Source: Limisphaerales bacterium
GTDB taxonomy: Bacteria > Verrucomicrobiota > Verrucomicrobiia > Limisphaerales > SXTU01
Assembly (NCBI GenBank): GCA_040081795.1
Contig: JBEBFV010000001.1
Span: forward strand, 959-64,958
Direction of reading: 5' to 3'
Length of the DNA: 64,000 nt
Shown here piece by piece: positions 29,086-63,726 of the stretch. Under the pieces are notes generated by a model that searched no databases, was not told where the DNA came from, and worked only from the letters and a program-made list of their open reading frames with translations. How positions within the stretch are numbered: position 1 is the stretch's first letter; the number at the start of each line of letters is the position of its first letter. Both the position numbers and the translations under genes were made by a program.

Positions 29086-29089
29086 AGCC

Positions 29090-29899: not shown

Positions 29900-29921
29900 T
29901 CGTTCACAAGCGAAAACGGGA

Positions 29922-30923: not shown

Positions 30924-30933
30924 TCGCAAATTT

Positions 30934-31794
30934 ATGAACGCCTTACCTTCCATTCCAGATGAACTGATTGATTCCCTCAAGAAAGACCGCTGTTCACTAT
31001 TTGTTGGTGCTGGACTTTCGGTGGGCGCTGGCTATCCCACTTGGGTTTCACTGTTGGAGCTTCTTATCCAACGAGCGACTGACCAAGCCATTATTTCCGC
31101 TCAGAAGCAGTCCGAGCTTCTCGACATCGCGAAAGCCCCAAACAAGTGGCTGATGGTCGCTCAAGAATTGAGTGACCTGTATGGGCGAGGGCCGTTCCAC
31201 AACGAGCTTGGCAAGATTTTTGAAGAGACGCAGGTTCAACCGACAAAGGCCCACGAGGTAATTACGCAAATCCCGTTTAAGTTTGTCGTGACCACGAACT
31301 ACGACCAGTTGATTGAGAATGCTTACTTCCCGCTGTTGAAGCGCATCCCGAAGATTTTTACTCATCAGGACACGCCAGATTTTGCAGATGCACTTTGGAA
31401 ACAAGAATTTTTCATTTTGAAAGCGCATGGCGACTTGCAAAAAAGGAGCAGCATTATTCTGACTGAGAAGGATTACAGAACGATTGTGTATTCCTCGCCG
31501 GGCTACAGGGCACTGTTGGCAGCAATTTTCACGACAAAGACTCTCTTGTTTTTGGGTGCCTCGCTAAGTGACCCTGAGATTCAGTTGCTCCTACGCTCCC
31601 TTCACGACGCTTTCCAAGGCTCTGGGCAATACCATTTCGCGCTGGTATCGAACAAAGACTTTAGTGATACAGAGGCGAGTCATTGGCGTAAGAATTACAA
31701 TGTTCGCTGCATTCGATACGAAGCCAGCCAAGGGCACCCGGAATTGACAGGGTTTTTGGAATCCATCAAATCCTCACTCGGCGCAGCCCAATGA
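30934..31794 (+). CDS. SIR2-family (SIR2_2 type) protein, putative NADase effector
   Basis: Motifs LFVGAGLSVGAGYPTW, VVTTNYDQLIENAY, ILKAHGDL and LLFLGASLSDPEI are present. The stop overlaps the next start (ATGA at 31791-31794). Confidence 0.85.
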   Translation: MNALPSIPDELIDSLKKDRCSLFVGAGLSVGAGYPTWVSLLELLIQRATDQAIISAQKQSELLDIAKAPNKWLMVAQELSDLYGRGPFHNELGKIFEETQVQPTKAHEVITQIPFKFVVTTNYDQLIENAYFPLLKRIPKIFTHQDTPDFADALWKQEFFILKAHGDLQKRSSIILTEKDYRTIVYSSPGYRALLAAIFTTKTLLFLGASLSDPEIQLLLRSLHDAFQGSGQYHFALVSNKDFSDTEASHWRKNYNVRCIRYEASQGHPELTGFLESIKSSLGAAQ

Positions 31795-48154: not shown

Positions 48155-48907
48155 AAGCAAGTCATTCAGCGCGGCCCGCGTGTCCTCGCCGGGCAGCTCT
48201 GGCAACTGGCTCTGGTCATGCGCCGCCTGAAGTTCGCCGCGCAGCCGCTGGTATTCCGACTCGTGGAACGCGATGTCCGCATCCTCCAGCTTCGACTTCT
48301 CCGGCCCAGCCAGCTTGCGCGCCACCAACTCGGCGAGGTAGGGCAGCCGGAACGCCTCGTTCAGCGTGACCAGATTCGCCTCCACCACGCCGGTCCGCAT
48401 CAGGTGAATGCCCGTGAGCAGGACGCGATACACGTAGAGCAGCGGCTTCACCCTGCGCGGCGATTCCTTGAGGAACAGTTTCCACTGCGTCTCCGCGAAG
48501 CCGAAGTAGTGATGCGAGTGATGCTCCGTGATGCAGCCAGGCGCGATGGCCTTCAACTCCGCGTGCTCCGGCGTCGTGTGGACGATGAGGGGCGAGAACA
48601 ACTGCTCCAGGACGTAGCCGTTCTTCTTGAGCAGCAGGCCAAAGAACTTCCGCACGTCATGGCTCACAATGTCCATCTCCAGCCCTTCAATGACGCGGGC
48701 CTCCTGCACCGTCTCGTCGCGCACGTCCAAGCCGATGATCTTGTCGAGCGGCAGCACATGCGCGCCGCGCAGGTCAAAGTCCGAGTCCGGCGACGGAAAC
48801 CCGTAGAGGTGCGCGCCGCTGATGGTAGCGAACAGCAGCGGATACGGCTGGTCCGCTACGATGCGGTGCAGGCGCGGGTCAATGGTCATGGGCATCACGG
48901 TGCTCAC
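48128..48907 (-). CDS. RlaP-like nucleotidyltransferase (RNA-repair-associated pol-beta superfamily)
   Basis: PYPLLFATISGAHLYGFPSPDSDFDLRGAHV.. is an NTase G-[SG]..D.D pattern. 259 aa. The start overlaps the pnkp stop. Confidence 0.65.
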   Translation of the reverse strand: MSTVMPMTIDPRLHRIVADQPYPLLFATISGAHLYGFPSPDSDFDLRGAHVLPLDKIIGLDVRDETVQEARVIEGLEMDIVSHDVRKFFGLLLKKNGYVLEQLFSPLIVHTTPEHAELKAIAPGCITEHHSHHYFGFAETQWKLFLKESPRRVKPLLYVYRVLLTGIHLMRTGVVEANLVTLNEAFRLPYLAELVARKLAGPEKSKLEDADIAFHESEYQRLRGELQAAHDQSQLPELPGEDTRAALNDLLLRVRLKVR

Positions 48908-51456
48908 AGTCGCGGGTCCACCGGCTCACTCTCCATGGCCAGCACGCCGAAGACGCACTCGTGGACACGCCGCAGCGGCTCGCCACGCGTGAACCGCTCC
49001 AACGCCTCGACCCCCAGCGCGAACTCCCGCAGGGCGAGCGAGCGCTTCGCGTTCAGTCCGCGTGAGCGCAGCCGCTCCAGGTTTTCGGGGGCGGTGTATT
49101 CCGGGCCGTAGATGATGCGCAGGTATTCCCGACCCCGGCATTTGACCGCCGGTTGGATCAGCCCCCGCTTGCCGCGCACCACAAAGTCAAGCGGCTTCAC
49201 CACCATGCCTTCACCACCGAGCGCCGTGAGTTCCTCCCACCAACGGACGGCGGCGGCCTCGCTGTCGGGGTTGGTCACCTCGACGACTTGAAAGGGCGTG
49301 GCGATGAGGATGCCACCGGCCAGCCGCGCCAGAGTCTGCATGTGCCAGTCGTTGGGTTTGTCCACGTGGACCTTGCCCTCCGTTGCCAGCAGGTGGAAGG
49401 GAGCGAGCTTGAGGTCGTCCACCGAGTTCACCGGCCAGCAGTAGCGACGGTAGGAGGCGACATAGTCGGCAGCCATTTCACGCCGGGCACCGGTGCGGAG
49501 AAGCAGGTCGCCCACGTCCAGGCCACGGCCATCGGCTTGCTTCAGCAGCCCGACTGCGTCGCCTAGCATCGCCCCGGCGGATGCGCCCACCGGGGCGTAT
49601 TGCTCTTTCAGCAACCCCTGAGCCTTCGCCGACCACGGCATCAGCTCGCAGTCGAGGCAGGCCCAGTCGGTTTGGAACTCGTCCCAGAACCCGGCCCGCG
49701 TCACCGCGTCGCGCACATGTTCGAGGAAGCCGGTTTCCATGACCGTGTCGTCAAAGAACCGCCGACCCGTGCGCGTGTAGCAGACGCCGAAGCCCTCACC
49801 CGTAACGCCGAAGCGTTTTCTCGCCACATCCTCATCACGGCAGACAATCACGACGGCGCGTGAACCCATGTGCTTCTCCTCGCAGACCACGCGGGGCACG
49901 CCTTCATGGCGGTAGTAGGCGAACGCCTCCGCAGGATGCTCCAGCAAACCGGGCTGCTGGCTCGTGCCACTGGGCGACATCGTGGGCGGCAGGTAAATCA
50001 GCCACTTCGGATTTGTGGCGAAGCGGCTCATCACCTCCAGCGCGGCGGTGGCGTTCTCCTCCCGGATGGTCACGTTCCCGTGCAGGCGCGTGCTGACGAT
50101 GCGCTTGCCCATCACGTCGGCGAGGTCGAGCAAGTCGTCGTGCTGCTGCTGCGCGGACAAGGTCGGTGCCTGAGCTTCTGGCAGGAGAAACGGTTTGCGC
50201 GGCTCGGCGTAAGTCTGTTTGGCGGCAACCGAGACCAGTTCCCGCTCCGGATACCGCAGCGCCGTGAGCTTCCCGCCGAAGACGCAGCCGGTGTCGATGT
50301 TGAGGGTGCGGTTCAGCCACTCCGGCTCTGGCACCGGCGTGTGCCCATAGACTACCGCCGCCGAGCCGCGATACTCGGCGGCCCAGTTGTAGCGCACCGG
50401 CAGACCAAACTCGTCCGTCTCGCCCGTGGTCTCGCCGAACAGGGCGAACTCTCGCACCGCCCCGGAGCCGCGCCCCTGCATGGATTCCTTCATGCCCGCG
50501 TGGGCGACCACCAGCTTGCCGTCGTCGAGCACGTAATGGCTCACGAGCGAGTCAATGAACTCCGCCGCGACGCGACTGAACCCCCGGTAGTGCTGCTCGT
50601 AGGCTTCAAACTGGGCCAGCGTCTCCGCCAGCCCGTGCGTGATTTGCACGTCCTTGCCCCAGACCTTGCGCATGAACTTCATGTCGTGGTTGCCCGGCAC
50701 GCACAGCGCGCTGCCGAACTTCACGCTGTCCATCACGAGCCGCACGACTTCGGGCACCTTCGGTCCGCGGTCCACCAGGTCGCCCACGAAGACGAGCTTG
50801 CGGCCTGCCGGGTGATGCCACGCGCCCGCGCTCTGCCCCGTTTCATAGCCCAGCTTCGCCAGCAGCTCGACCAGCTCATCGAGGCACCCATGCACATCGC
50901 CGATGAGGTCAAACGGGCCGTGCTCGTGCTTCAGGTTGTTCCAAAGCGGCTCACGCACGATCTCGACCGTCTCGATTTCCTCCAGCGACTTGAGCACATG
51001 CACATGGCGAAAACCTTCGCGCTCCAGCCCGCGCAGCGACTGGTGCAGTTGCGTGGCCTGCTGCCGAATGACGTGCGGCCCGAAGTTGCGGTCGGGCCGG
51101 GTCTGGTTGCGCTCGTGCGCGACGCGCTCCGGCACGTCGAGCACGATGGCCACGGGCAGGCAGTGGAACTCCCGTGCGAGCTGCACCAGCGGCTTGCGCG
51201 CCTCCGGCTGGACGTTGGTGGCGTCCACCACCGTGAGCTTGCCCGCTGCGAGCCGCTTGCGTGCAATGAAGTGGAGCACGTCAAACGCGTCCTTCGTCGC
51301 CGCCTGGCTGTTCTCTTCATCGGACACCAGCCCGCGACAGTAGTCCGAGGAAAGCACCTCCGTCGGCTTGAAGTGCCGCCGCGCAAACGTGCTCTTGCCA
51401 GAGCCGGACACGCCGACCAGCACGACGAGGGAGAGTTCGGGGACGGTGAGTTTCAT
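48904..51456 (-). CDS. pnkp: Polynucleotide kinase-phosphatase-ligase (bacterial Pnkp)
   Basis: Kinase P-loop LVGVSGSGKSTF. Metallophosphoesterase motifs GDVHGC, GDLVDRG and GNHD. A C-terminal adenylyltransferase-like region has CEEKHMGSRAV. 850 aa. Confidence 0.9.
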   Translation of the reverse strand: MKLTVPELSLVVLVGVSGSGKSTFARRHFKPTEVLSSDYCRGLVSDEENSQAATKDAFDVLHFIARKRLAAGKLTVVDATNVQPEARKPLVQLAREFHCLPVAIVLDVPERVAHERNQTRPDRNFGPHVIRQQATQLHQSLRGLEREGFRHVHVLKSLEEIETVEIVREPLWNNLKHEHGPFDLIGDVHGCLDELVELLAKLGYETGQSAGAWHHPAGRKLVFVGDLVDRGPKVPEVVRLVMDSVKFGSALCVPGNHDMKFMRKVWGKDVQITHGLAETLAQFEAYEQHYRGFSRVAAEFIDSLVSHYVLDDGKLVVAHAGMKESMQGRGSGAVREFALFGETTGETDEFGLPVRYNWAAEYRGSAAVVYGHTPVPEPEWLNRTLNIDTGCVFGGKLTALRYPERELVSVAAKQTYAEPRKPFLLPEAQAPTLSAQQQHDDLLDLADVMGKRIVSTRLHGNVTIREENATAALEVMSRFATNPKWLIYLPPTMSPSGTSQQPGLLEHPAEAFAYYRHEGVPRVVCEEKHMGSRAVVIVCRDEDVARKRFGVTGEGFGVCYTRTGRRFFDDTVMETGFLEHVRDAVTRAGFWDEFQTDWACLDCELMPWSAKAQGLLKEQYAPVGASAGAMLGDAVGLLKQADGRGLDVGDLLLRTGARREMAADYVASYRRYCWPVNSVDDLKLAPFHLLATEGKVHVDKPNDWHMQTLARLAGGILIATPFQVVEVTNPDSEAAAVRWWEELTALGGEGMVVKPLDFVVRGKRGLIQPAVKCRGREYLRIIYGPEYTAPENLERLRSRGLNAKRSLALREFALGVEALERFTRGEPLRRVHECVFGVLAMESEPVDPRL

Positions 51457-51621
51457 TGTCGGCTGCCGCCGTGCGCTACAGGTCTTGCACCTGCCCGACC
51501 CCCATCATCCTGCCTTTGGCCCGTTCGGGCGGGGGGGCATGCTGCTTTTGCGTCAGGCTCGCTTACATCAAGCGCACGGCTAGCTTGAGACTACGGGTTT
51601 AGAGCCTTCGTGTGCAATCCA

Positions 51622-53922
51622 CTACGGCTGGGGCTTCAGAAGTTTCTCCGCACTGGCAGTCATTTCAACAGCGTGCTGTCTGCGATTCTCCATGGCCTCA
51701 TTGCTCTGCGGCACTGGCAACTGTTGCAGGCCTGCCAGCCACTCTTTGATGAACCGAATGAACACCTCGGTGTGCGTGCAAGCTTGTTTGATGAAGTGCT
51801 CCCAGTTCTTCAAAACGCGTGCGCTCACCGCGTTGTGAATCGCTTCAAGCGAGTTGTGAACACCACTTTGAAGGTGCCCGCGCATCCGTGCTGCGCATCC
51901 AGTGCCCCCCTCGCCTCCGATAAGACTGAACGCTGGCGATAGAATTTCCCGAATCTCAGGCGTAAGCCTCGCACGTAAAGATTCGTAGTCGTCCGTGCTC
52001 TTGCGAAAATCCTCTCGTAAGGCCTTTAGTTGAAGCGTCGCTTTCGTTCCGAAGTCTGCCATGCGCTCGTCCACGAACCGCACGGTGGCCGGGTCTTGGG
52101 CCAAAGCGAAGCCCCTCGCCTCCTGGATAATCTTCTCAATGGAGTGTATCAACTCGTCCAGTTTAGTGCCGCAGATGATTTCGATAAGCCGGTCACGGTC
52201 TTGCACCCAAGTCGCTCTGAGCTGCTCGCAATAAATTTCAGCCAAGTCCCCTTGAATGTGATACTCACGTCCATCATACGTCGTGTGCCATCCGCGCTTT
52301 GAGCCAAGCGCCCTCATCGTCCTCCAGTGCAATCCGGTCCACACTTCCATCCTCCATCGCAGCGGATTCTGGAATCCGCGTTGCGCGTGCATCAGGATTT
52401 CCGCTGCCTTCTGGTGAAAGCTTGACTCGATTTGTCCGAGTAACCGCTCACTGTCGTCGGTTTCAACGAGGAACTGCGTGACACCGGCCTCAACGTGTTT
52501 TGCAATTTCACGGTAAGCTTCGGCTTGGCCGGCCAAGCCGAGTTCAGCTCCCATCCTCTGGCGGCGAAAAAAGTCGATGACCGAACCCACCTCGCTTTCC
52601 AGGTGGCTTTGCATTCGCCTGAGAAAATGAGTGCTCAAATACTGCTCCGTGGATTCTTGAAGCACACGTCGCATCTTCGGGATGCCAGTCTTCTCCGTGT
52701 CCTCGTCGAAGCGAAGGAAACGAGACATCATTTCCAGATTTGCAGGTTTGTAGGGATTATCCCGCACCCTAGTTCGCAGCCCTCGGTCGCTGAGTTGCCG
52801 AAAAGTTTTGGCAGATACAAAATGCACCGGCATCGAGTTCACGAACTCATCGAGGCGAGCGACGAGTTTGGCGTCAGCGAACTTGTCGCGCACTAACTGA
52901 CGTAACTGTCGTCGAAAATGGGCTTCCTGCTCTCGACAGTGGGCCTCAAGAAACGGCCATGTTGATGGTGCGTCTTCCGGGACGTTTTCTAAAGGCTGCT
53001 CGTCAATGACCGTGCGAACCACCATCACTCGCTGCTGGTTTCGCTCGGTGCTCTCAGCGATTTCCGACAGGATGGAAGTCTGCTTGAACCACTCCATGAC
53101 ATCGCTGCCCAACTGAGTGCCTTTCGTAATCAGCATCAATCCAGCAACTTTACTTTGGGCCTGCTCGGTGACTTCCGTCCTAAACGGGTCGATGTCGTTG
53201 GTTCCGGGCATGTCGATGAGTTCCATCTGTGGTGCCCACTCAGGAAACCGCCCTTCCAGAACGCACTCCTCGACAACGAATGCCTTCTTGCCCTGCGCTG
53301 CCAGGTGCTCTGCAACCGCCGCGTCGTCCTCGACAGCGATTTCACGGCTCGCTCCAAATTCGTCAAAAGTGATGCCTTCGGGACGAACGAGGCATTGCTT
53401 GCAGAACTCCACTATCTGAGCTGGGGAGCGGTCACGGATTCCAAAGAAGCCGATAAATCTACCGAGCGCCTTTCGGATTTCCTCGCCCGCAGTCGCGGCA
53501 GACTCCTCGCCAGAGAGCGCCGTTTCAGCATCCTTGAGTCCGTCTTTGAGCTTCGACAGGAAATCCTCTTGAGAAACGTAGCGCACCGTCATCCTGTAAC
53601 CGTCAATTTCCAGGTAGCGACACCGCACCACGGCGGCGGAACACGCTCCAACATGGCCTTCCGTGAGAATCTTCCGACCCAAGAGCACGTTGACGAGAGT
53701 GCTCTTGCCATTCTGCGAGCTACCCAGCAGGTGAATCGCAAAGCGAGGCTCGTCTTTGAGTTCTGCCCGGAGAGCGTTCAACCGCTCGACTCGCTCTTTG
53801 AAGAATTTCGTCGTCTCTGGCGATGCGAAGTAGGCTTCCGCCTTCGGTCGAAGTTCAGCCGAGATGGCGTGAATTGCGTTCTCGGCTATTGCCAGCAACT
53901 CGATGGTTGAAGTTTTCGGCAT
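51622..53922 (-). CDS. Dynamin-family large GTPase-like protein
   Basis: G1 is LLGSSQNGKSTLVNVLLG and G3 is LIDMPGTND. A long helical C-terminal region follows. 766 aa. Confidence 0.65.
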   Translation of the reverse strand: MPKTSTIELLAIAENAIHAISAELRPKAEAYFASPETTKFFKERVERLNALRAELKDEPRFAIHLLGSSQNGKSTLVNVLLGRKILTEGHVGACSAAVVRCRYLEIDGYRMTVRYVSQEDFLSKLKDGLKDAETALSGEESAATAGEEIRKALGRFIGFFGIRDRSPAQIVEFCKQCLVRPEGITFDEFGASREIAVEDDAAVAEHLAAQGKKAFVVEECVLEGRFPEWAPQMELIDMPGTNDIDPFRTEVTEQAQSKVAGLMLITKGTQLGSDVMEWFKQTSILSEIAESTERNQQRVMVVRTVIDEQPLENVPEDAPSTWPFLEAHCREQEAHFRRQLRQLVRDKFADAKLVARLDEFVNSMPVHFVSAKTFRQLSDRGLRTRVRDNPYKPANLEMMSRFLRFDEDTEKTGIPKMRRVLQESTEQYLSTHFLRRMQSHLESEVGSVIDFFRRQRMGAELGLAGQAEAYREIAKHVEAGVTQFLVETDDSERLLGQIESSFHQKAAEILMHAQRGFQNPLRWRMEVWTGLHWRTMRALGSKRGWHTTYDGREYHIQGDLAEIYCEQLRATWVQDRDRLIEIICGTKLDELIHSIEKIIQEARGFALAQDPATVRFVDERMADFGTKATLQLKALREDFRKSTDDYESLRARLTPEIREILSPAFSLIGGEGGTGCAARMRGHLQSGVHNSLEAIHNAVSARVLKNWEHFIKQACTHTEVFIRFIKEWLAGLQQLPVPQSNEAMENRRQHAVEMTASAEKLLKPQP

Positions 53923-53961
53923 GGTTGAAACCCTATTTTACTTCTCGATTCGCGTCGAGAA

Positions 53962-55380
53962 TTACGAACCCCCACGCGTCCGCTCGAACACCCCCATCTG
54001 CGTCGGTGAGCCGACGGTCGCATCCTCCGGCCCGACTGGCAGAAACCGCACCGCGTAGCCGAAGCGGGCGGCGATGCCGTTGGCCCACCCCTGAAACTCC
54101 GCACGCGTCCACTCGAAGCGGTGGTCGCGGTGGCGGAACTTGCCCGCCGGAAGGGTCTCCCATTTCACGTTGTATTCGCGGTTGGGCGTGGTGAGCACCA
54201 CGGTGCCGGGCCGGGCGAACTCGAAGAGCACGCGCTCGAACGCCGCCAGGCGCGGCGGGTCGAGGTGTTCAACGACCTCGACGACAGCAGCGGCATCGAA
54301 GCCGGCCAGCCGCTCGTCCCGATACATGAGCGAGCCGTGCAGGAGCTTGAGTCGCTCCTTTTGCAGCGCGGGCAGGCGGTCGTAGTGCAGGTTCTCCACC
54401 GCCATCTCCAGCACGCGATGCGACACGTCCAGCCCGACGATGCGCGTGAACTGGCGTTCCTTGAGCAGCATGCGCAGCAGCTTTCCTTCGCCGCAGCCGA
54501 GGTCGAGCACGGAGGTTGCGCCAGCGGCCTTGAGCACGGCGAGCACGGTCCCGAGGCGCTGCTCGTTCAGACTCAGGGCACGCTCGACGGTCGCCTCCTC
54601 CTGAGCTTGGGCCTCCGCAGTGTCGTCGGGATGCGGGTCGCTCTCGTCCACGAGCTGGGCGAGCGCGTCCGTGACGAGGCTGCGCTGGTGCTTCAGGTAG
54701 CGGCGCGTGATGGCGTCACGTTCGGGATGCGCGGCGAGCCAGCCTTCGCCGTGGCGCAGGAGCTTGCTCACTTCGTCGTCGCCGACCCAATAGTGCTTGT
54801 CGTTGTCGAGCACCGGCACGAGCACGTAGAGGTGGCTGAGGAACTGGTGCAGCGGGAGCGTGGCCTCCAGCTCGACGCGGTGATAAGCGCTCTCGCCCCA
54901 GGCCGGGAAGGTTTCGTCGAGTGGCAGTCGCGTGGCACTGACACGATAGCCGAGCGGCTCAAAGAGCTTGCGCAGGAATTCCTCGCCCCCTCGACAGGGC
55001 AACGCGGGAAGTTGGACGCGCAGTGGCAGCGGCGTCTGGGACAGTCCCGGATGGTCTTTGCACTCCGTGCCCGACAGCGCGCTGCCGAAGACCTCCGCGA
55101 TGGCCACGCTGAGGAACGACGAGGCGGCGTAGGGCCGGTCGTTGACGTATTGCTCCAGCAAGCCGCCCTCACCGGACGGGCCGCGCCGCTTGCGCACGAG
55201 TCCCACCGGGTCCACCTCCACGAGCAGCGCCACCGAGCAGCGTTCCTCGCCCGCTTCGGGATAGAAGACATGGGCGTTGCCGAACGTGAGTTCAAACGAC
55301 TGCGAGCGCGCCGGGTTCTTGCGGAGCAAGTAGCCCAAGTCCGTCGCGGGACGGTGCGTGGTCGTCAAGGTGAGTAGCAT
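53962..55380 (-). CDS. hen1: Bacterial Hen1 RNA 3'-terminal 2'-O-methyltransferase
   Basis: The N-terminus MLLTLTTTHRPATDLGYLLRKNP is typical of bacterial Hen1. The C-terminal SAM motif is VLDLGCGEGKLL. 472 aa. Confidence 0.88.
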   Translation of the reverse strand: MLLTLTTTHRPATDLGYLLRKNPARSQSFELTFGNAHVFYPEAGEERCSVALLVEVDPVGLVRKRRGPSGEGGLLEQYVNDRPYAASSFLSVAIAEVFGSALSGTECKDHPGLSQTPLPLRVQLPALPCRGGEEFLRKLFEPLGYRVSATRLPLDETFPAWGESAYHRVELEATLPLHQFLSHLYVLVPVLDNDKHYWVGDDEVSKLLRHGEGWLAAHPERDAITRRYLKHQRSLVTDALAQLVDESDPHPDDTAEAQAQEEATVERALSLNEQRLGTVLAVLKAAGATSVLDLGCGEGKLLRMLLKERQFTRIVGLDVSHRVLEMAVENLHYDRLPALQKERLKLLHGSLMYRDERLAGFDAAAVVEVVEHLDPPRLAAFERVLFEFARPGTVVLTTPNREYNVKWETLPAGKFRHRDHRFEWTRAEFQGWANGIAARFGYAVRFLPVGPEDATVGSPTQMGVFERTRGGS

Positions 55381-55407
55381 GGGAGGAAGCTATTGAGTTC
55401 CTGGTGC

Positions 55408-56337
55408 CTAGCCAGCCATCTCACGCCGAGCCTTGAGGAGGAAAAGGTTAGCCGACTCGTAGTCGGGGCGTTCGGGCAGTTTGGTCTCCGCTAGGGCGCG
55501 CTCAAAGTCCCGGTGGAGTTCCTGTCGCCATGCGTCCACGTCGGCCCAAGGCATCTCGCCGCGCTTGACCACAAGCAGTCGGTCGCGGTGGGCCTCGACG
55601 CGCACAGGGACGCGGGCCTCACGCAACGTGGCCGCGCCGGTGAGCAGCAGGCGCAGCAGGTGCATGGCGTGCTTCCATCGCACCGCGCCCTGGTTGCGGA
55701 TGTCCTGCTCGATCTTCTTGAACTGCGACATGGCGTAGCCGTTGAAGGTCTGGAAAATCATCTGGCTGAGGAAGCCTTGGCGCAGGGCCACCAGCTCCGC
55801 GCCCAACGGCGTGGCCTTTTCGACCAGCGGCGAATAGAGGCACTCCAGGATGTTGGGGTTGGCCTTGAGCGCCATGGTCAGGAACTTCTGCAATTCCCAG
55901 TAGCAGCTCTGCGAGGCGTTGTCCTCGAACTGCTCCGGCGCACCGAACAGCGACCATTGCAGGTCGGCGGGCGCAAGGTAGATGCCGCGCTGGTCGGTGT
56001 CGGAGTCGTCCTGGTCCAGCCCGTAGGCACGCGACCCGACGACGCAGCGGTAGATGATGAACTGTTCGAGGTCGAAGTCCGCCGTCGCCCCGCCGTCACC
56101 GAGGCGATCCTTGAAGTGCTTCAGGACTTCGAGCTGCGAGCGCTCCAGTGATTTCTCGAAGCCGTCGGGGAAGCGGACAAGGAACTGCACCTGATCGCCC
56201 GTAGGTGTGCGGGTGACGACCCCGACCGCGCCACGCGGATGGACAAGCGAGTTGTTCGTCCCCCGCACTTCCACCAGCGACACGACCTGCGTGCCCGCGA
56301 AGATGTTGTTGGGTTGATGTGACACAAGGCACCTCAT
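55408..56337 (-). CDS. RlaP-like nucleotidyltransferase, first gene of the RNA-repair operon
   Basis: VVGSRAYGLDQDDSDTDQRGIYLAP..YWELQKFLTMALKANPNILECLYSP matches the RNA-repair-pathway pol-beta family pattern. 309 aa. Confidence 0.7.
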   Translation of the reverse strand: MRCLVSHQPNNIFAGTQVVSLVEVRGTNNSLVHPRGAVGVVTRTPTGDQVQFLVRFPDGFEKSLERSQLEVLKHFKDRLGDGGATADFDLEQFIIYRCVVGSRAYGLDQDDSDTDQRGIYLAPADLQWSLFGAPEQFEDNASQSCYWELQKFLTMALKANPNILECLYSPLVEKATPLGAELVALRQGFLSQMIFQTFNGYAMSQFKKIEQDIRNQGAVRWKHAMHLLRLLLTGAATLREARVPVRVEAHRDRLLVVKRGEMPWADVDAWRQELHRDFERALAETKLPERPDYESANLFLLKARREMAG

Positions 56338-57052: not shown

Positions 57053-60000
57053 GTGCCCCGCGTCATCGTTCATCTCGATGCCGACGCCTTCTTTGCGTCG
57101 GTGGAACAGGCGTCCGACACGCGCCTGCGTGGCAAGCCGGTCGCCGTCGGTGGTGAGAAGCGCGGCATCATCGCCTCTGCCAGCTATGAGGCCCGCAAGT
57201 TCGGCGTCTTCACGCCCATGCCCACCGTGCGGGCGCGCAAGCTCTGTCCCCAGCTCATCGTCCTGCCCGGCGACTTCGACAAGTATGAGCACTTCTCCCG
57301 GTGGATGTTCAGCTACGCGCAGGACTTCACTCCCGATGTCGAGATTGCGAGCATCGACGAGGGCTACTTCGACCTGAGCGCCGTGCGGAAGCCGCCGCTG
57401 AACGTGGCCGAGACCATCCGCACGGCCATCCGGCAGTCACTCAAGATTTCGGTCAGCGAGGGCATCGCCAGCAACAAGCTCGTCAGTCAGATTGCCTCCA
57501 AGCTGTCCAAGCCTGCCGCGTTCAGGGAGGTGCCCGCCGGGTTGGAAGTCCGCTTCATCCATCCGCTGCCCAACAAGTGGCTGCCCGGTGTCGGCCCCGC
57601 GACCGCGCAGCGGCTCGACGCCGCCGGGTTGGCCTGCATCCGCCACGTCGCGGCCACGCCCACGGACATGCTGCACCTGCTGGTGGGCAACCTGGCCCCG
57701 ACGCTCAAGGCGCACGCGGACGGCATTGACGAGCGCCCGGTGCTGCCGATGAGCGCCCCGGCCAAGTCCTACAGCCAGCAGCAGACCTTCGAGGTGGACC
57801 TCACGGACGAGGAGTTTGCCGAGGCGGTCCTCCGGCGCATGGCTGACGACCTGATGGCCAAGGTGCGGTCGGATGGCAAGAGCATCCGCACCCTCACCGT
57901 CAAGGTGCGCTACAACGACATGGGCGAGGACCAGTGTGGTGAGAGCCTGCTCGAACCGACCGACCTCGAAACGGATGTCTACGGCCGCTTGCACATCCTC
58001 TTCCGGCAGGCGTGGAAGCGGCGCGTCAGCCTGCGCCTCGTCTCCCTGAAGCTGTCGAATGTGTATGACGGCCTCTTCCGCGCTGAACTCGCCCTCGAAC
58101 GGTCAGCGGAGCAGCACGAGGCCCGGCGACGCTTGGCTGGCATCGTGGATGAGCTGCGCCGCGCACGCGGTCGTGACGTGGTGCTGCGCGGCCATGACTT
58201 CCGGTTGCGTGAGGCTCCGATGGACACGGCGAAGTTTCTGGAGCAGCAGAGCGCGCCGCGTGTGGTCGTGCGCGTGCCGGTGCGCCGAGTCACGCCGACC
58301 AGCTACGTGCCGCTGTCTGTTCACAGCGCCTACTCGTTCCTGAACTCGACGCTCAAGGTGGACGCCCTCGTGGCGCTGGCGAAGCGGCGCGGCCTCTCCG
58401 CCATCGCCCTCACGGACACCGGCAACCTGCACGGCGCGGTGGAGTTCACGCAGGCGGCCAAGCAGGCGGGCATCAAACCCATCCTCGGTGCGACGGTAAT
58501 GGTGGAGGGCCAGCTCGCCCGGCTCTACGTCCAGACTGCGACCGGCTACCAGAACCTCTGCCGCCTGCTCACGACGACCACGCCGCACGCGGAGTCCGAG
58601 GACGACCCCACCGAGCCGCGCCACGTTCACCTGCGTCTGTCACAGCTTGATGGCCTGAACGCCGGACTGCTCGCCGTCGGCGCGGACACGCGGCTGTCCT
58701 CCGTGTTCGATGACCGCTTCTGCCGGGCCGTCTCCAGCTTGGACGAGGCGAAGGCGGCCAGCAGTGCGCGGTGCGTGGCCGTGATGCCGGTTCACTACGC
58801 CGAGCGTGACGACCGTTGGCAGTGGAACATCGTGCAGAGCATCCGCACGCGCACGCTGCTGCGGCAGACGCATCCGGGGAAGCTACTCGATGGTGACTTC
58901 CACCTGCGGACCCCTGCGGAGATGACGGCCCTGTTCCGTGACTTCCCCGATGTCGTCGCCAACACGCTGGAGCTGGCCGAGCGTTGCCCGTTCGAGTTGC
59001 CGCTCGGTGCGCCGCAGTTCCCGGCATTCAAGCCGGAGGATGGCTCCACGCCCCGCGCTTACCTGCGGAAACTCGTGCTGGAAGGACTGCGCCGCCGTTA
59101 CCGTGACCGGGCGGATGCCATGCACGCGCAGGTGGACGAGGAGCTGGGCATCATCGCGGAGGTCGGCTACGAGGCCTACTTCCTCGTCGTCTGGGACATC
59201 CTGCAAGCGTGTCGGCAGCACGGCATCGAGTGGATTACCCGTGGCAGCGCGGCGGACTCGCTCGTGTGCTACTGCCTGGGCATCTCGGACGTGTGCCCCA
59301 TCCGGTTCGATCTCTACTTCAAGAGGTTCCTGAACAAGGAGCGCATGGCCATGAACAAGCTCCCGGACATCGACATTGATTTCGCGCACGACCGGAAGGA
59401 CGACGTGGTGGACCTCATCTTCGCCAAGTATGGCGCGGCGCACGCGGCGGTCGTGGGCGGCTTCTCGACTTTTCAGGCCCGCAGTGCCTTTGCCGAAATC
59501 GCCAAGGTGCTCGGTGTCGGGGAACGGGAGGTGCGCAAGTTCACCGACCACTTCCCCTGGAGCTTCGGCGGCGGCTGGGTGCCCAATGAGCCGACGCCCA
59601 GTGGCGGCACGGGCCTGATTGAGATGCTCAAGGCCAGCCCGGAGAACCGTGACCTACCCTTCGAGGAGGAGCCTTACCGGACGGCGCTGCTCATGGCCGA
59701 GTTCCTCGACGGGATGCCGCGCTACCCGAAGATGCACCCGTGCGGCGTGGTGCTCTCGTGCCAGCCGATGACGGAGCTGACGCCCACGTTCACCTCGAAC
59801 AAGGGACGCCCCACGACGCACTTCGACATGGACGCGGTCGAGGCCATCGGGCTGGTGAAGATTGACGTGCTGGCCCAGGGCGGGCTGGCCGCGATGCGGG
59901 ACGCCAGAGAGTCGTTGGCCCGGCGTGGCATCGAGGTTGACCTCGCCGGACTGGAGCCGTGGCAGGACAAGAACGTCTGGGAGATGCTGGCCAGCGGTGG

Positions 60001-61372
60001 AGGCCGGGCGGTGCATCACATCGAGTCACCGGCGATGATTGGCCTGAGCCGCCAGTGCAACGTGCGCGACATCGACGGTCTCGTAGCCATCGTCAGCGTC
60101 ATCCGGCCCGGCGCGGCCAACGAGGGCAAGAAGCAGTCGTTTGCCCGGCGGTATCAGGGCCTGGAGCCGGTCGTGTATCCGCACCCGTCACTGGAGGCGT
60201 GCCTCAAGAGCACGTTCGGGCTGGTCGTGTATGAGGAGCACATCCTGCAACTGTGCGAGGCCTTCGCCGGGCTGCCACCGGGCCGCGCCGACGTGTTGCG
60301 CCGGGCGCTGTCCAAATACAAGGCACCGCTCATAGAGACCATCCGCCAGGAGTTCTTCGCCTGCGCCAAGGCACGCGGCCACGAAGACGAGAAGATGGTT
60401 GAGGTCTGGCGGCTAGTGACCGGCTTCAGCGGCTACGCGTTCTGCAAGGCGCACAGCACGGCCTACGGGGTCGAGGCGTATCAGAGCGCGTGGCTGAAGC
60501 GCTACCACCCGGTTGAGTTCATGGCGGGCGTGCTGACCAACGGGAAGGGGTTCTATCACCCGCTGGTCTATGTCCTAGAGTGTCACCGGCTCGGCATCAC
60601 GTTGCTGCCACCGTGCGTGACCAGTCCCGGCCCGCAGTTCTCCGTCGAGGGCCAGTCCATCCGCGTGCCGCTGACCCGCGTGAAGGGACTTACCGGGCGC
60701 ACGACCGAACGCATCCTCGATGAGCATGGCCGGAGCGTGTTCACGTCCATGTCCGACTTCTACCGGCGCGTGCTGCCCACGCCCGACGAGCTGGAGGCGA
60801 TGATTCGGGTGGGTGCGTTCGACATCTTCGGCAAGACGCGCACGGCGCAGTTCTGGGAGTCCCGTCATCTTCACCACGCCTTCGGGGACAGCGGCACGAG
60901 CGCGCCGGGCCAGGGCTGGCTCCTGCCCCCACCCGCGACCGACCGGCTGCCTGCGGTGCCGTTGCAGGAGCCGACACGTCGCCAGCGGCTTGAGTGGGAG
61001 GCAGAGCTGCTCGACTTCACGGCCAGCGGCCATCCCCTCGAACTCCACGACCACATCGCGTGGGGCACCTACTGCCCGGTGAACCGGCTCGGCGAGCACA
61101 TCGGCCAGCAGGTCGTCGTGTGCGGCCTCATCATCGAGCAGCGCGTCCACCACCAAGTCACCGGCGAGCCGATGAAGTTCCTGACGCTCGCCGACTGGAC
61201 GGGCATGGTGGAGACGGAACTCTTCGCGCCAACGTATCGGAGCTATGGGCTGGCGACCGTGCGCTACCCCGTGCTCGCAATCACCGCGACCGTGGAGCCG
61301 TTCGAGAATGGCCGAGGCTTCTCCCTGCGCGTGCTGCACGCGGGCAAGCCTCGTCAGGGACACCAGCACTGA
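57053..61372 (+). CDS. dnaE2: Fusion protein: DinB-type Y-family polymerase (N-terminus) + DnaE2 error-prone Pol III alpha (C-terminus)
   Basis: One uninterrupted 1439-aa ORF. The first ~390 aa carry the Pol IV motifs LDADAFFASVEQ and SIDEGYFDLS. From ~aa 410 comes a PHP domain (LSVHSAYSFLNST..LTDTGNLHGAVEF), then GYEAYFLVVWDI, LPDIDIDFAH and the rest of a DnaE-type alpha subunit. Confidence 0.85.
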   Translation: MPRVIVHLDADAFFASVEQASDTRLRGKPVAVGGEKRGIIASASYEARKFGVFTPMPTVRARKLCPQLIVLPGDFDKYEHFSRWMFSYAQDFTPDVEIASIDEGYFDLSAVRKPPLNVAETIRTAIRQSLKISVSEGIASNKLVSQIASKLSKPAAFREVPAGLEVRFIHPLPNKWLPGVGPATAQRLDAAGLACIRHVAATPTDMLHLLVGNLAPTLKAHADGIDERPVLPMSAPAKSYSQQQTFEVDLTDEEFAEAVLRRMADDLMAKVRSDGKSIRTLTVKVRYNDMGEDQCGESLLEPTDLETDVYGRLHILFRQAWKRRVSLRLVSLKLSNVYDGLFRAELALERSAEQHEARRRLAGIVDELRRARGRDVVLRGHDFRLREAPMDTAKFLEQQSAPRVVVRVPVRRVTPTSYVPLSVHSAYSFLNSTLKVDALVALAKRRGLSAIALTDTGNLHGAVEFTQAAKQAGIKPILGATVMVEGQLARLYVQTATGYQNLCRLLTTTTPHAESEDDPTEPRHVHLRLSQLDGLNAGLLAVGADTRLSSVFDDRFCRAVSSLDEAKAASSARCVAVMPVHYAERDDRWQWNIVQSIRTRTLLRQTHPGKLLDGDFHLRTPAEMTALFRDFPDVVANTLELAERCPFELPLGAPQFPAFKPEDGSTPRAYLRKLVLEGLRRRYRDRADAMHAQVDEELGIIAEVGYEAYFLVVWDILQACRQHGIEWITRGSAADSLVCYCLGISDVCPIRFDLYFKRFLNKERMAMNKLPDIDIDFAHDRKDDVVDLIFAKYGAAHAAVVGGFSTFQARSAFAEIAKVLGVGEREVRKFTDHFPWSFGGGWVPNEPTPSGGTGLIEMLKASPENRDLPFEEEPYRTALLMAEFLDGMPRYPKMHPCGVVLSCQPMTELTPTFTSNKGRPTTHFDMDAVEAIGLVKIDVLAQGGLAAMRDARESLARRGIEVDLAGLEPWQDKNVWEMLASGGGRAVHHIESPAMIGLSRQCNVRDIDGLVAIVSVIRPGAANEGKKQSFARRYQGLEPVVYPHPSLEACLKSTFGLVVYEEHILQLCEAFAGLPPGRADVLRRALSKYKAPLIETIRQEFFACAKARGHEDEKMVEVWRLVTGFSGYAFCKAHSTAYGVEAYQSAWLKRYHPVEFMAGVLTNGKGFYHPLVYVLECHRLGITLLPPCVTSPGPQFSVEGQSIRVPLTRVKGLTGRTTERILDEHGRSVFTSMSDFYRRVLPTPDELEAMIRVGAFDIFGKTRTAQFWESRHLHHAFGDSGTSAPGQGWLLPPPATDRLPAVPLQEPTRRQRLEWEAELLDFTASGHPLELHDHIAWGTYCPVNRLGEHIGQQVVVCGLIIEQRVHHQVTGEPMKFLTLADWTGMVETELFAPTYRSYGLATVRYPVLAITATVEPFENGRGFSLRVLHAGKPRQGHQH

Positions 61373-61419
61373 GACTTGCAGGAAGGTGGGCAGCTTGCGC
61401 CCGAACGACCGGTAGTGTC

Positions 61420-61914
61420 CTAATTTGAAACTGCCCCGAATCCGAAGCCCTGTTTTCTCAGCATTTCAAACAGCTTCACACATGGAACGCCAAAGTGGTT
61501 GCACACCGATGGAATTTTTACACGATGCTTTGAGTTCTCGTGTTTCTCAAAAGTCACAACCGCGTGACGGTGGGCATGGGCGTGAGCAATCAGCCAGTAA
61601 TCCGCATCATTTAGGAACTCTGCCTTCGCCGCAGAACTGTAGGTGTTGTGACTGTCCAGCCAAACGGCAATTGCTTTGAGCGATTCGGCGGTTTTCTCGT
61701 CTGGTGGCAAAAAGAAGCCCAAACCGAGACTTTTCGACCAAACAGAAAGTTGGTCGGCGTGGCCTTGCAATTCCTCCATCACTTTTTCAACGCTATAGAC
61801 GTGCCCATCTTGGTTGGCCTTAATGAGCCAATCCCAATATGGCTTTGCCATGTCAAACGGGTAAAAGTCGTTCTTCGCCTGAATCAAAGTATTGCTGTCT
61901 AGCAGGTAAGCCAT
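61420..61914 (-). CDS. DUF4411-family (PIN-like) protein
   Basis: MAYLLDSNTLIQAKNDFYPFD..YWDWL.. is typical of DUF4411. The start is at an internal Met of ORF 61420..62010, 1 nt after the upstream stop. Confidence 0.7.
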   Translation of the reverse strand: MAYLLDSNTLIQAKNDFYPFDMAKPYWDWLIKANQDGHVYSVEKVMEELQGHADQLSVWSKSLGLGFFLPPDEKTAESLKAIAVWLDSHNTYSSAAKAEFLNDADYWLIAHAHAHRHAVVTFEKHENSKHRVKIPSVCNHFGVPCVKLFEMLRKQGFGFGAVSN

Positions 61915-61915
61915 G

Positions 61916-63049
61916 TCAGCACCCCAATCTCTTTGCCAACTCGTGGAACGTGTTGATGCTGCTAACCCCGACGAGTTGCATCGCCTCACGGTAGCTCGTT
62001 CCGCCTTCAAGGGCGCTTACAACCAAACTTCTCGTAAGGCGTCTGCCTGCGCGAATCGGAGCGCTCCTGTAGAAACTTCCTCCCGCCCCCTTTCGGTGGT
62101 ATCTGCGCACCTCGTTCGCGTAGATTTCTTTGAAACGCGGTTGGTCAATGAATCCAGCATCAAGCGCACGCCTAGCAGTAACCAATGTGCTGACCTTGAA
62201 CTGCCTGCCAAGCCGGACAACTTCGGAATAACTGTCTGCTTGAGTGCGCCAATGCACTCTAAACATTGCCATTGGTATCAGCAGTTCAGCTCCAACGGAA
62301 TTGCAATAGCGTTCAACGCTTTGATCGGGGGGCAGGCTGTCATCAAGATTGAAAACCACAGACTCTCCAATCCAAAGGTGAACAAGCTCGTGGGCCAATG
62401 TGAACAGTTGCGCTGCCTTGGAGTCGGCGGTGTTAATAAACAGAACCGGCGCATACTTGTCGCAAAGCGCGAATCCCCGAAAATCGCTCACAGAAATAGC
62501 CCTGCGCGTTGCGTTTCCAACGATGCTGCTTCGCATCACGACAATTCCAGCGTCCTCTGCCTCTTCGACATGGAGTTCAAGGCTTTCCTCCCAACTGCTC
62601 GCCCTGAATGAAATTTCTGGCCCAATGCTCAAGGTGGAGCGGATTACTTCTGCCGCCGTTTCAACCCGCGTATCTGGCCTCAAAGAGCCGATAAACGGCA
62701 GAGGTTCGTTGCCAGCCTTTTTCAGATGATCGCGATACCATTCCTGCCTGCGTTGGGCGTGGTAAATGACATCGAGCAGGTTGGGGCTTACTGTGGCTAC
62801 GCCGGAAACGGTTCTAAAATCCTTCACCGGCAGCTTCTCTACAGGCGGCTTTGGTAGGAAAAGATAACCAACCGGCGTGTGCGTCTTTTCGGCCAACGCC
62901 TCCACTTGCTTTAGGGAAAGGATGCCATCCATCTCCCACTCCACAACACGGGACACTTTCTTCCCCAACCTTTTTGCGAGTTCTTCGGGGCTTAACCCGG
63001 CCCTGATTCTCGCCCAGCGCAACACATTTGGCTCCAGGTTCGTATTCAT
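61916..63049 (-). CDS. XRE-HTH / ImmA-IrrE family zinc metallopeptidase
   Basis: N-terminal HTH (LRWARIRAGLSPEELAKRLGKKVSRVVEWE) and the HExxH motif TLAHELVHLWIGE. 377 aa. Confidence 0.85.
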   Translation of the reverse strand: MNTNLEPNVLRWARIRAGLSPEELAKRLGKKVSRVVEWEMDGILSLKQVEALAEKTHTPVGYLFLPKPPVEKLPVKDFRTVSGVATVSPNLLDVIYHAQRRQEWYRDHLKKAGNEPLPFIGSLRPDTRVETAAEVIRSTLSIGPEISFRASSWEESLELHVEEAEDAGIVVMRSSIVGNATRRAISVSDFRGFALCDKYAPVLFINTADSKAAQLFTLAHELVHLWIGESVVFNLDDSLPPDQSVERYCNSVGAELLIPMAMFRVHWRTQADSYSEVVRLGRQFKVSTLVTARRALDAGFIDQPRFKEIYANEVRRYHRKGAGGSFYRSAPIRAGRRLTRSLVVSALEGGTSYREAMQLVGVSSINTFHELAKRLGC

Positions 63050-63171
63050 TGGCGAGCTTCTTCCCTCATGTAGCGGGCGAGCAGCATATCAACCAAGCGC
63101 GAGCCTTTGTCGTTCCATCGTTTGACGGCAGCTTCCCAGACCGTGCCGTCAACAGAAACACAAATTTTCAC
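63046..63171 (-). CDS. Possible 41-aa ribbon-helix-helix-like protein (GTG start)
   Basis: My own translation gives VKICVSVDGTVWEAAVKRWNDKGSRLVDMLLARYMREEARQ*. The stop overlaps the ImmA start (ATGA-type). It is below the ORF-track size cut-off. Confidence 0.3.
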   Translation of the reverse strand: MKICVSVDGTVWEAAVKRWNDKGSRLVDMLLARYMREEARQ

Positions 63172-63347
63172 CTTGGAAGCCCCTTTTGGCCTTCCAACGC
63201 CGGGCCTACAACCGCCCGCTGCGGATGCACCGCCGCCGCCTCACCCCGTTGCTGTGCTGGAAATCCCGCCCGTGGAGTCGGCTCAAACCGCCGTGCGCGT
63301 CCAGATCGTCAAGGATGTGAAGTCTGGCTACTCCAAGTAACGAGAGC

Positions 63348-63446
63348 GGACGCGACCGGAGTCGAACCGGTATCAACCCCTTCTTCAAGCCACCACGCGG
63401 ATGGCCTGAAGCAGGGGGCCGCTCTGTCCATTTGAGCTACACGTCC
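63348..63446 (-). tRNA. tRNA-like gene with canonical acceptor, D and T arms but a ~34-nt hairpin in place of the anticodon loop (isotype unassignable)
   Basis: The sense strand reads GGACGTG-TA-GCTC-AAATGGACA-GAGC-G-GCCCC-[CTGCTTCAGGCCATCCGCGTGGTGGCTTGAAGAA]-GGGGT-TGAT-ACCGG-TTCGACT-CCGGT-CGCGTCC. The bracketed part extends the anticodon stem into an ~18-bp helix capped by CGCGT. No CCA is encoded. Confidence 0.55.
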
Positions 63447-63726
63447 ACAGCTACAGACGGCGCAACTGCTCAAAGCTTCAAATTCGGACACCACCGAATG
63501 AGCGGCTGTGTTGACAGCAGGGCGCTCGGCCACTAACAAGCAATCGGTGTGCGCGCTGGAAACCCCGTAGGAATATGGGCAGTGCCGGTTCCAGTGGCCA
63601 GTGGGACAGATGGGTGCAAGACCCATGGCGCAAACTCCGATTTCCTCTTTGGAGTGGGTGGTGGTGGCGTTGGTCAACGCGCTGGCCGTCAACGACAACT
63701 ATTCCGTCCGCAACGGGAACTGCGCG

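Follow-up and report, generated by a model that had tools for sequence, protein, structure and literature searches.

A hairpin-interrupted tRNA-Arg-type gene in an inserted segment of a Limisphaerales chromosome and its relatives in phage genomes

The 64,000-nucleotide stretch analyzed here (the window) comes from the GC-rich chromosome of a Limisphaerales bacterium (Verrucomicrobiota), represented by a metagenome-assembled genome (MAG; GCA_040081795.1, contig JBEBFV010000001.1, positions 959 to 64,958). Close to one end of the window lies a tRNA-type gene whose anticodon loop is interrupted by a hairpin, and which very probably belongs, as far as sequence comparison can tell, to a class of tRNA-Arg genes interrupted between tRNA positions 36 and 37. 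The gene runs from 63347 to 63446 on the minus strand, measures 100 nucleotides (nt) including the discriminator G, and encodes no CCA. In a search of the whole window it matched the Rfam tRNA family (RF00005) with 50.3 bits (gathering threshold 29; E-value 8.5e-8) over 71 of 71 model positions, with a 31-nt insertion in the anticodon loop; G18 and G19 of the D arm and a T arm with GUUCRA were present, and the A15-U48 tertiary pair was retained. RNAfold likewise returned a cloverleaf, with an acceptor stem of 7 bp, a D stem of 4 bp and a T stem of 5 bp, and an anticodon arm made up of 5 bp, a 1x1 internal loop, a further 12 bp and a CGCGU cap (minimum free energy (MFE) of -50.9 kcal/mol; z = -3.87; 1 of 200 shuffled sequences folded equally well). 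A first-pass annotation, made from the sequence, had proposed at 63348-63446 a tRNA-like gene with canonical acceptor, D and T arms, in which 34 nt stand in place of the 7-nt anticodon loop. The Rfam alignment and the predicted fold bear out both statements, with every stem it listed present; the locus stands, and only the first position had to be moved to include the discriminator. Its judgement that the gene is not of the selenocysteine type also held, as a permissive Rfam scan of 63200-63600 (E-values up to 1) reported RF00005 alone and no match to tRNA-Sec, tmRNA or Y RNA.

The two strands of the anticodon stem are thus separated by 34 nt, where a usual loop has 7. In the MFE structure this stem is shifted by one position (CCCCU/AGGGG, followed by a G.A 1x1 loop); for the gene we adopted the tRNA register, with GCCCC/GGGGU as the stem and C32 unpaired. 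A contiguous 7-nt loop with U33 and a purine at position 37 is not encoded, and arises only once 27 nt are removed, which leaves a standard loop of the form C-U-NNN-A-A. The earlier statement that no anticodon context could be extracted was therefore mistaken, and ARAGORN does call a tRNA here when introns are allowed. With default settings, ARAGORN found zero tRNAs and zero tmRNAs across the window; with its intron search it reported a “tRNA-Leu(aag)” with a 27-nt intron at 34/35. Because the same mode labels clearly homologous members of the family inconsistently as Leu or Arg, we considered its isotype and splice register arbitrary and disregarded both. We also ruled out that the hairpin is a repeated element, as it occurs once in the window and the inserts of the family are alike in structure rather than in sequence.

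To describe the class, we began from a pattern in which a D arm of the Arg type and a T loop flank a stretch longer than any class-I tRNA allows. It recovered 115 viral contigs of several kinds, only a few of which shared the architecture of the window gene, even though the loop sequence had been left unspecified. Narrower patterns returned 12 metagenome contigs, further viral contigs and, among 185,579 species representatives, a single bacterial genome, a Chitinophagaceae MAG (L118; CBDFGC01) in which the interrupted gene is chromosomal and has ordinary neighbours. The same patterns recovered an ordinary intron-bearing archaeal tRNA (L117), which we used as a control. Considering that the genome and metagenome scans used a pattern restricted in the D arm, the census of cellular genomes is a lower bound. 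Together, the pattern scans and the orthologues in Aeromonas phages gave at least 26 distinct relatives, from the T4-like Aeromonas phages PX29, Aeh1, Ah1, avDM12 and AsFcp, from many uncultured phage contigs, and from the Chitinophagaceae MAG. They share a tRNA-Arg-type body, G18 G19 A20, a loop that starts with C-U-U-C-U, and a hairpin of 25-42 nt whose last two bases, AG, are followed by A-A. Most of them sit in phage tRNA clusters, and their neighbours are T4-like (baseplate genes, gp19, RegA, Acb1). We found no description of hairpin-interrupted tRNA-Arg genes in the literature searched, and the class, most of whose members come from T4-like phages, is apparently both rare and undescribed.

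The position of the insert is fixed at 36|37 by the uninterrupted orthologues L132 and phiAS5. The exons of L119 each match annotated ordinary phage tRNA-Arg genes at 94-100%, and an uninterrupted tRNA-Arg(UCU) gene from a 634-kb uncultured phage (L132) has a 3' exon identical to that of L119 and a nearly identical 5' exon; the only possible placement of the 30-nt insert that separates the two is between U36 and A37. Similarly, phage phiAS5 has an uninterrupted Arg(UCU) gene just after acb1 (57B), and at the same locus PX29, Aeh1, Ah1, avDM12 and AsFcp_4 have genes with inserts of 26-28 nt. The interrupted gene is labelled in GenBank as tRNA-Lys, in two pieces, in PX29 and as tRNA-Glu in Aeh1, and is unannotated in Ah1, avDM12 and AsFcp_4; Arg-UCU is missing from the tRNAs given in the genome paper on Aeh1, which counts three “pseudo” tRNAs (PMC1524935). 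As the family fixes the junction, we set aside the other registers in which the window gene could be spliced, namely CU|AAGAA (AAG), CUG|AGAA (GAG) and CUGC|GAA (GCG, Arg), the last of which would require blunt rather than staggered cuts.

The pairing of the insert is constrained as well. Across the class, pairing insert nucleotide +i with nucleotide -(i+2) gave 86% standard pairs, versus 37-46% for other offsets, and the window copy forms seven out of seven pairs at this offset of 2. In an alignment of 16 sequences, 96.4% of the cells of the full structure were paired, versus 35-46% in slid registers; the covariation score was 0.777, versus 0.187 in shuffles, with none of 500 shuffles reaching the observed value, and all eight insert pairs were altered on both sides. 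Arms measured 10-12 nt in 14 of the 16 members, with loops of 3-6 nt. This strong covariation, obtained by the comparison of homologous genes that the first-pass annotation had called for, indicates that the hairpin of the class is under selection. In the predicted precursor, the terminal AG of the insert pairs with C35-U36, and A37-A38 pair with N34-U33 (U34-U33 in the class), so that, with C32 bulged, the 5-bp anticodon stem runs on into a duplex of 19-21 bp that conceals the anticodon. The two junctions lie 2 bp apart near the middle of this duplex, with a 2-nt 3' overhang. Separately, we noted that an identical 26-nt insert (CATTCCATTCTGAGGAATGGAGAGAG) is present in three clearly different tRNA-Arg bodies (L034, L129 and L217/L266), whose acceptor stems, D arms, anticodon stems and T arms are not the same. 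Here the exons are less conserved than the insert, and this suggests either lateral movement of the insert or very strong constraint.

The window gene agrees with the class in nearly every respect. Its insert of 27 nt has two 10-nt arms and a 5-nt loop, within the ranges of the class (25-42, 10-12 and 3-6 nt); its 3'-terminal AG is paired with C35-U36; it lies at 36|37; and the loop halves are C-U-N-C-U and A-A. The length and the 10/5/10 arrangement of arm, loop and arm are shared with L074, L127 and L131. Of the explanations offered in the first-pass annotation, the evidence therefore favours a tRNA that carries a short non-canonical insertion or intron, through the match in position, register and size to a covarying class of tRNA-Arg(UCU) type. 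Two traits depart from the class: G34 makes the anticodon GCU (loop CUGCUAA after splicing at the class junction) instead of UCU, and the gene is a lone tRNA in 64 kb of bacterial chromosome instead of lying in a phage genome or a tRNA cluster. The copy is also set apart by its 4-nt variable loop, and its insert has a G+C content of 63%, versus 31-52% in other members. G34 forms a G.A mismatch with A37. In blastn, the gene as encoded matched neither phages nor Escherichia coli genomes; when spliced in silico, its closest matches were annotated phage tRNA-Arg genes, at a weak E-value of 1e-3. The known identity rules of arginyl-tRNA synthetase (ArgRS) fit, with A20, C35, U36 and G73.

The immediate surroundings of the gene point to its arrival at this locus on an inserted segment. 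We located orthologous loci through the conserved ImuB-DnaE2 fusion (94%, 88% and 85% identical) and found no tRNA at the orthologous loci of the relatives L133-L137; a gene for an Ig-like protein comes immediately after DnaE2 in the closest relatives. In blastn against L133-L137, window positions 61383-63502 replace about 29 bp of the closest relatives, L133 and L134. The junction alignment resolves this as a segment of about 2.1 kb between imperfect 18-bp direct repeats (Table 1), with a single related copy, ACAGATGATCCGGCGGTGT, in the empty site of L133; the repeats are unrelated to the tRNA. Because this repeat-flanked segment is absent from the orthologous loci, the window copy is, judging by this comparison, horizontally acquired, inside an insertion that also holds an HTH-ImmA/DUF4411(PIN) module. 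The earlier remark that the gene abuts ImmA/DUF4411 was correct as to the link and understated it, as all three genes lie in the one insertion. DUF4411 is a predicted toxin of the VapC group of PIN-like proteins, from three-component systems of HTH, protease and PIN proteins (PMC5499597). A general partnership between the tRNA-like gene and this module was considered and rejected, since a tRNA-like gene is lacking at four other ImmA/DUF4411 loci. The best other homologue of the window ImmA protein is only 52% identical, so that comparing loci through ImmA was uninformative. A perfect palindrome 73-103 nt upstream of the start codon of the HTH-ImmA gene is probably its operator.

Table 1. Features of the tRNA-type gene, the inserted segment and the neighbouring region (window coordinates)
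Feature	Coordinates	Strand	Content	Basis
Whole tRNA-type gene	63347..63446	-		Rfam tRNA match, cloverleaf MFE
5' exon, tRNA positions 1-36	63410..63446	-	Acceptor 5' strand, U8, D arm GCUC/GAGC with G18 G19 A20, stem strand GCCCC, C32 U33 G34 C35 U36	Alignment with the family; boundary from L119/L132 and PX29/phiAS5
27-nt intervening hairpin	63383..63409	-	UCAGGCCAUC-CGCGU-GGUGGCUUGA-AG	Register test, geometry, family covariation
3' exon	63347..63382	-	A37 A38, GGGGU, 4-nt variable loop UGAU, ACCGG-UUCGACU-CCGGU, acceptor 3' strand, discriminator G	Rfam match, fold, family alignment
Inserted segment, ~2.1 kb (one repeat copy counted)	61419..63511		DUF4411, HTH-ImmA, tRNA-type gene	blastn, junction alignment
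Left imperfect 18-bp direct repeat	61401..61418	+	CCGAACGACCGGTAGTGT	Junction alignment
Right imperfect 18-bp direct repeat	63494..63511	+	CCGAATGAGCGGCTGTGT	Junction alignment
HTH_3 + Peptidase_M78 (ImmA/IrrE-type)	61916..63049	-	377 amino acids (aa)	Pfam; PADLOC RmrA/CapP models
DUF4411	61420..61914	-	164 aa as called on L001	Pfam 1.7e-49
Perfect 9-bp inverted repeat	63122..63152		TTGACGGCA-N13-TGCCGTCAA, between the tRNA-type gene and ImmA	Sequence reading
ImuB-DnaE2 fusion	57053-61372		One ORF, 1439 aa	
Second variable segment	47147-56406		9.3 kb	
Pnkp	48904-51456			
Dynamin-like GTPase	51622-53922			
Hen1	53962-55380			
RlaP	55408-56337			
Ssp set	25633-40500			PADLOC
SspC	25633-29085			
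SspF	31791-33686			
SspG	33683-35221			
SspH	35179-40500			

The wider window is a defence-rich region. It holds a complete-looking Ssp phosphorothioate defence set (SspC, SspF, SspG and SspH) with very strong PADLOC matches, and a second variable segment in which 9.3 kb take the place of 1.26 kb in the closest relative, L133. This second segment contains Pnkp, a dynamin-like GTPase, Hen1 and RlaP, and lies across the LexA/ImuB-DnaE2 cassette from the tRNA insertion. In this cassette, ImuB (with its IMS domains) and DnaE2 form one open reading frame (ORF), a fusion that is kept in many relatives within Limisphaerales and Verrucomicrobiota at 68-94% identity. Downstream of it, the relatives with 88% identity (L135/L136) hold other cargo, namely a D12 methyltransferase, a pentapeptide-repeat protein, an ASCH protein and a bacteriophage exclusion (BREX) set (BrxE/A/B/C). 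Because different cargo occupies the same site, the 3' flank of DnaE2 looks like a hot spot for the insertion of defence genes.

For the class as a whole, the phage PX29 is informative. Its complete genome has 23 standard tRNAs by ARAGORN, for nearly all amino acids and none for arginine, which makes the interrupted gene its only tRNA-Arg candidate. Taken together, the covariation of the hairpin and this sole Arg gene speak for a precursor that would need processing rather than for a dead insertion. We therefore propose that the hairpin would be excised after transcription and the halves sealed, restoring a normal CUUCUAA loop. On the evidence of conservation, we hold it to be an even bet that the class genes are spliced at all. 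RNase III leaves products with 2-nt 3' overhangs, 3'-OH and 5'-phosphate ends, which are direct substrates of ATP-dependent RNA ligases. The 2-bp offset between the junctions, with its 3' overhang, matches this product geometry, and it is for this reason that we suggest that an RNase III-type double-strand endonuclease would cut at both staggered junctions and that an RNA ligase of the Rnl1 or Pnkp/Hen1 type would join the ends directly. That RNase III and a ligase are the enzymes responsible is a tentative proposal, which we think more doubtful than splicing itself, and we are just as reserved about the broader notion that the inserts define a protein-dependent route of tRNA splicing in bacteria and phages, with excision of the RNase III type and resealing of U36-A37 by a ligase (Rnl1 with polynucleotide kinase (PNK); Pnkp/Hen1 or other). 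Another endonuclease that works with RtcB is a possible alternative. PX29 carries rnlA, rnlB, pseT, a CCA-adding enzyme and an RlaP nucleotidyltransferase, and in the window Pnkp, Hen1 and RlaP lie within 48904-56337, in an operon that could be the sealing machinery for the window RNA. One candidate was rejected as evidence of splicing: the “RNA ligase” beside the interrupted gene of PX29 (57B, 101287-101784) and its orthologues in Aeh1, Ah1 and phiAS5 are the anti-CBASS 2H phosphodiesterase Acb1 (Pfam 9.1e-36), and the RefSeq product name in these four phages is misleading. In a survey of jumbo phages, the RNA ligases of phages, RlaP and TROVE proteins are discussed solely as means of repair (PMC7824862).

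Several known systems resemble the class in part. The tRNA introns of archaea and eukaryotes with a bulge-helix-bulge (BHB) motif are likewise short inserts in the anticodon loop that pair with the anticodon and whose removal needs an endonuclease and an RNA ligase; they have two 3-nt bulges separated by a 4-bp helix and a canonical site at 37/38, whereas the class has no bulges, a site at 36/37 and a continuous duplex of about 20 bp, and we know of no splicing endonuclease of the BHB type in bacteria or phages, where the class occurs. Group I introns also split bacterial tRNA genes in the anticodon loop (tRNA-Leu UAA in cyanobacteria, tRNA-Arg CCU in Agrobacterium), but these are self-splicing ribozymes of more than 200 nt, whereas the inserts of 25-42 nt have no ribozyme core and no Rfam match. 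The closest analogy would be the intervening sequences that RNase III excises from bacterial 23S and 16S rRNA (Salmonella, Campylobacter, alpha-proteobacteria), with ligation added: in both cases an extended hairpin replaces a native loop and is present sporadically among close relatives (in the class, phiAS5 vs PX29/Aeh1 and L132 vs L119), and the RNase III stagger is predicted for the class. After excision the rRNA stays in fragments, but a tRNA could decode only once the break in its anticodon loop had been joined again. Such sealing of anticodon-loop breaks by RNA ligases is known from the PrrC/Pnkp/Rnl1 restriction-repair system of T4 and from bacterial Pnkp-Hen1, where it mends nuclease damage; in the class, the break would be a programmed step of maturation. 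The ordinary phage tRNA-Arg(UCU) genes (T4, cyanophages, phiAS5, Melnitz) are homologous to the class in their exons, but have neither the hairpin at 36|37 nor the G34 of the window copy.

The scans also returned other long tRNA-like genes, which we record as observations in their own right. One abundant kind has about 45 extra nt between the D and T arms, with a hairpin followed by an ACAGCAA-like motif; it includes a gene in PX29 (NC_023688.1, 83777-83893), members on L007, L013, L010, L021, L031, L059, L084 and L088, and dozens more, and is abundant in gut-phage contigs of sample 3300045988. The PX29 gene encodes CCA; at a distance of 2.5 kb is a DUF2828+VWA protein, labelled “RNA-binding protein”, which in predicted domain architecture resembles Ro60/TROVE. 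L002, L076, L097, L099, L110, L071 and L011 are tRNA-Arg-like, with a normal loop (UCU, CCG or ACG) and a class-II-like variable arm of about 20 nt. L012/L108, L081, L043, L009 and L018 are GC-rich phage tRNA-like genes with intact Arg-type D and T arms and an extended anticodon arm, in which a standard loop or UCU motif is not recognisable.

Considering all of the above, the reading that we favour for the window gene as a whole, with a probability of roughly 0.55, is that of a horizontally acquired phage-type tRNA-Arg gene of this rare interrupted class. A number of points weigh against it or against the splicing that we attach to the class. The search patterns themselves imposed part of the invariance that we describe (CUNCU, AGAA and the T loop and, in early scans, the D arm). 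Excision is predicted from conservation only; the RNase III-like geometry follows from the pairing of AG with CU and could serve another purpose; and pairing between intron and anticodon is known also in eukaryotic pre-tRNAs. Rnl1 and PNK are common to T4-like phages generally, and no ligase or RNase recurs beside the class genes (Pfam search of 109 ORFs, among the 25 of 51 matched families that were listed). At least two phage contigs with an interrupted copy (L123, L106/L124) have an ordinary Arg(UCU) gene in addition, and the interrupted copy is thus not always indispensable. As for the window copy, it is without a close relative for comparison, and neither a sigma-70-like promoter nor an intrinsic terminator was found around it. 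Its arginine identity is drawn from a few identity nucleotides and from a weak blastn ranking, in which the spliced sequence also matched tRNA-Asn (E-value 1e-2). Finally, it is the only one of about 26 members with G34, all others having U34, although position 34 had been left free or searched as G in the scans.

The G34 bears on two of the rival readings. If the window copy were processed like its relatives, it would yield a tRNA with a GCU anticodon charged by ArgRS, which would misread AGC and AGU, and AGC is the commonest serine codon in the genes considered here (18.7 per 1000 codons). For this reason we think that the copy is most likely not matured to an active tRNA in its host and is recently disabled or a silent passenger; the chances that it is inactive appear to us finely balanced. 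A decayed relic, which arrived on a mobile or prophage fragment, underwent a change of U34 to G and is a pseudogene that looks intact owing to its recent acquisition, is a possible if less probable alternative. It would account for the unique G34, for the misreading that activity would entail, for a lone tRNA in 64 kb, for its place within an insertion missing from the relatives, and for the missing promoter-like site. It sits less well with the state of the gene, in which all stems are intact, the 12-bp insert helix contains only G-U wobbles as deviations and A15-U48 is kept; indeed, the class architecture is preserved in all respects but the G at the wobble position. The G+C content of the insert, raised with its pairing preserved, would moreover point to long evolution in a GC-rich genome, and hence to selection until recently. 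At the other extreme, G34 might be purposeful, with the gene encoding a deliberate recoding tRNA that, after excision of the hairpin, is charged with arginine and reads serine AGC/AGU codons as a toxic or regulated device for mistranslation in a defence island. The register of the class does predict a CUGCUAA loop, the Arg identity elements A20, C35 and U36 are present, and the setting is a defence island; still, we consider this very improbable, given its single occurrence without conservation and the strong harm that constitutive activity would do where AGC is the main serine codon.

Three further readings were considered. An unspliced tRNA-like RNA with a masked anticodon might act on an enzyme directed at tRNAs, such as DUF4411 or an anticodon nuclease, as its decoy, inhibitor or sensor. 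The gene was inserted together with the HTH-ImmA/DUF4411 module in a region rich in defence functions (Ssp, Pnkp/Hen1), the presence of ordinary Arg(UCU) genes beside the interrupted one in some phages would agree with such a role, and VapC toxins cleave tRNAs in anticodon or variable loops (PMC13273310). For the window copy in particular, its unique G34 and its position beside a predicted PIN-type toxin leave such a role conceivable. We nevertheless regard it as unlikely, as the four other ImmA/DUF4411 loci lack a tRNA-like gene, the loop halves CUUCU and AA of the class are preserved exactly as decoding needs, and PX29, having no other tRNA-Arg, is better explained by a precursor. The gene could also be the attachment site (attB) of a genomic island, or, as the first-pass annotation suggested, a degenerate tRNA retained as a target for integration. 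Its 3' end points towards ImmA/DUF4411, in the usual orientation of tRNA-associated islands; however, no tRNA is present at the empty site in L133/L134, the gene itself belongs to the inserted segment, the repeats on either side show no relation to it, and no second copy of its 3' end is present at the border or elsewhere in the window, so that we give this reading hardly any weight. A BHB or group I intron is the least probable of all and is refuted by structure. An insertion in the anticodon loop and an intron that pairs with the anticodon, as in eukaryotic pre-tRNAs, do recall BHB introns, but the helix runs without a break and lacks the two 3-nt bulges, the site is 36/37 rather than 37/38, the organism is bacterial, and the archaeal control looks different; for group I, 27 nt are far too short for a core, and no Rfam intron family matched at E-values up to 1.

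As far as is known, the tRNA genes of bacteria and their viruses are interrupted only by self-splicing (group I) introns, and protein-dependent tRNA splicing is regarded as a trait of archaea and eukaryotes. A conserved, covarying hairpin at a fixed but non-canonical site, 36/37, together with a sole Arg gene in PX29, would imply a process of excision and sealing that is so far undescribed, and the class therefore hints at a route of tRNA splicing in bacteria and their viruses; if excision and sealing were demonstrated, this would be a new category of splicing. Carriers of the interrupted gene include the cultured phages PX29, Aeh1 and Ah1. Because interrupted genes are missed or mislabelled, phage tRNA repertoires are under-counted. 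The window copy is a separate case, a wobble-mutated member in a verrucomicrobial defence-rich region with a PIN-type toxin module. For the class at large, if the splicing reading is true, the ligases of “RNA repair” would gain a programmed housekeeping substrate, which bears on what Rnl1, Rnl2, Pnkp/Hen1 and RtcB may do when no toxin has damaged a tRNA.

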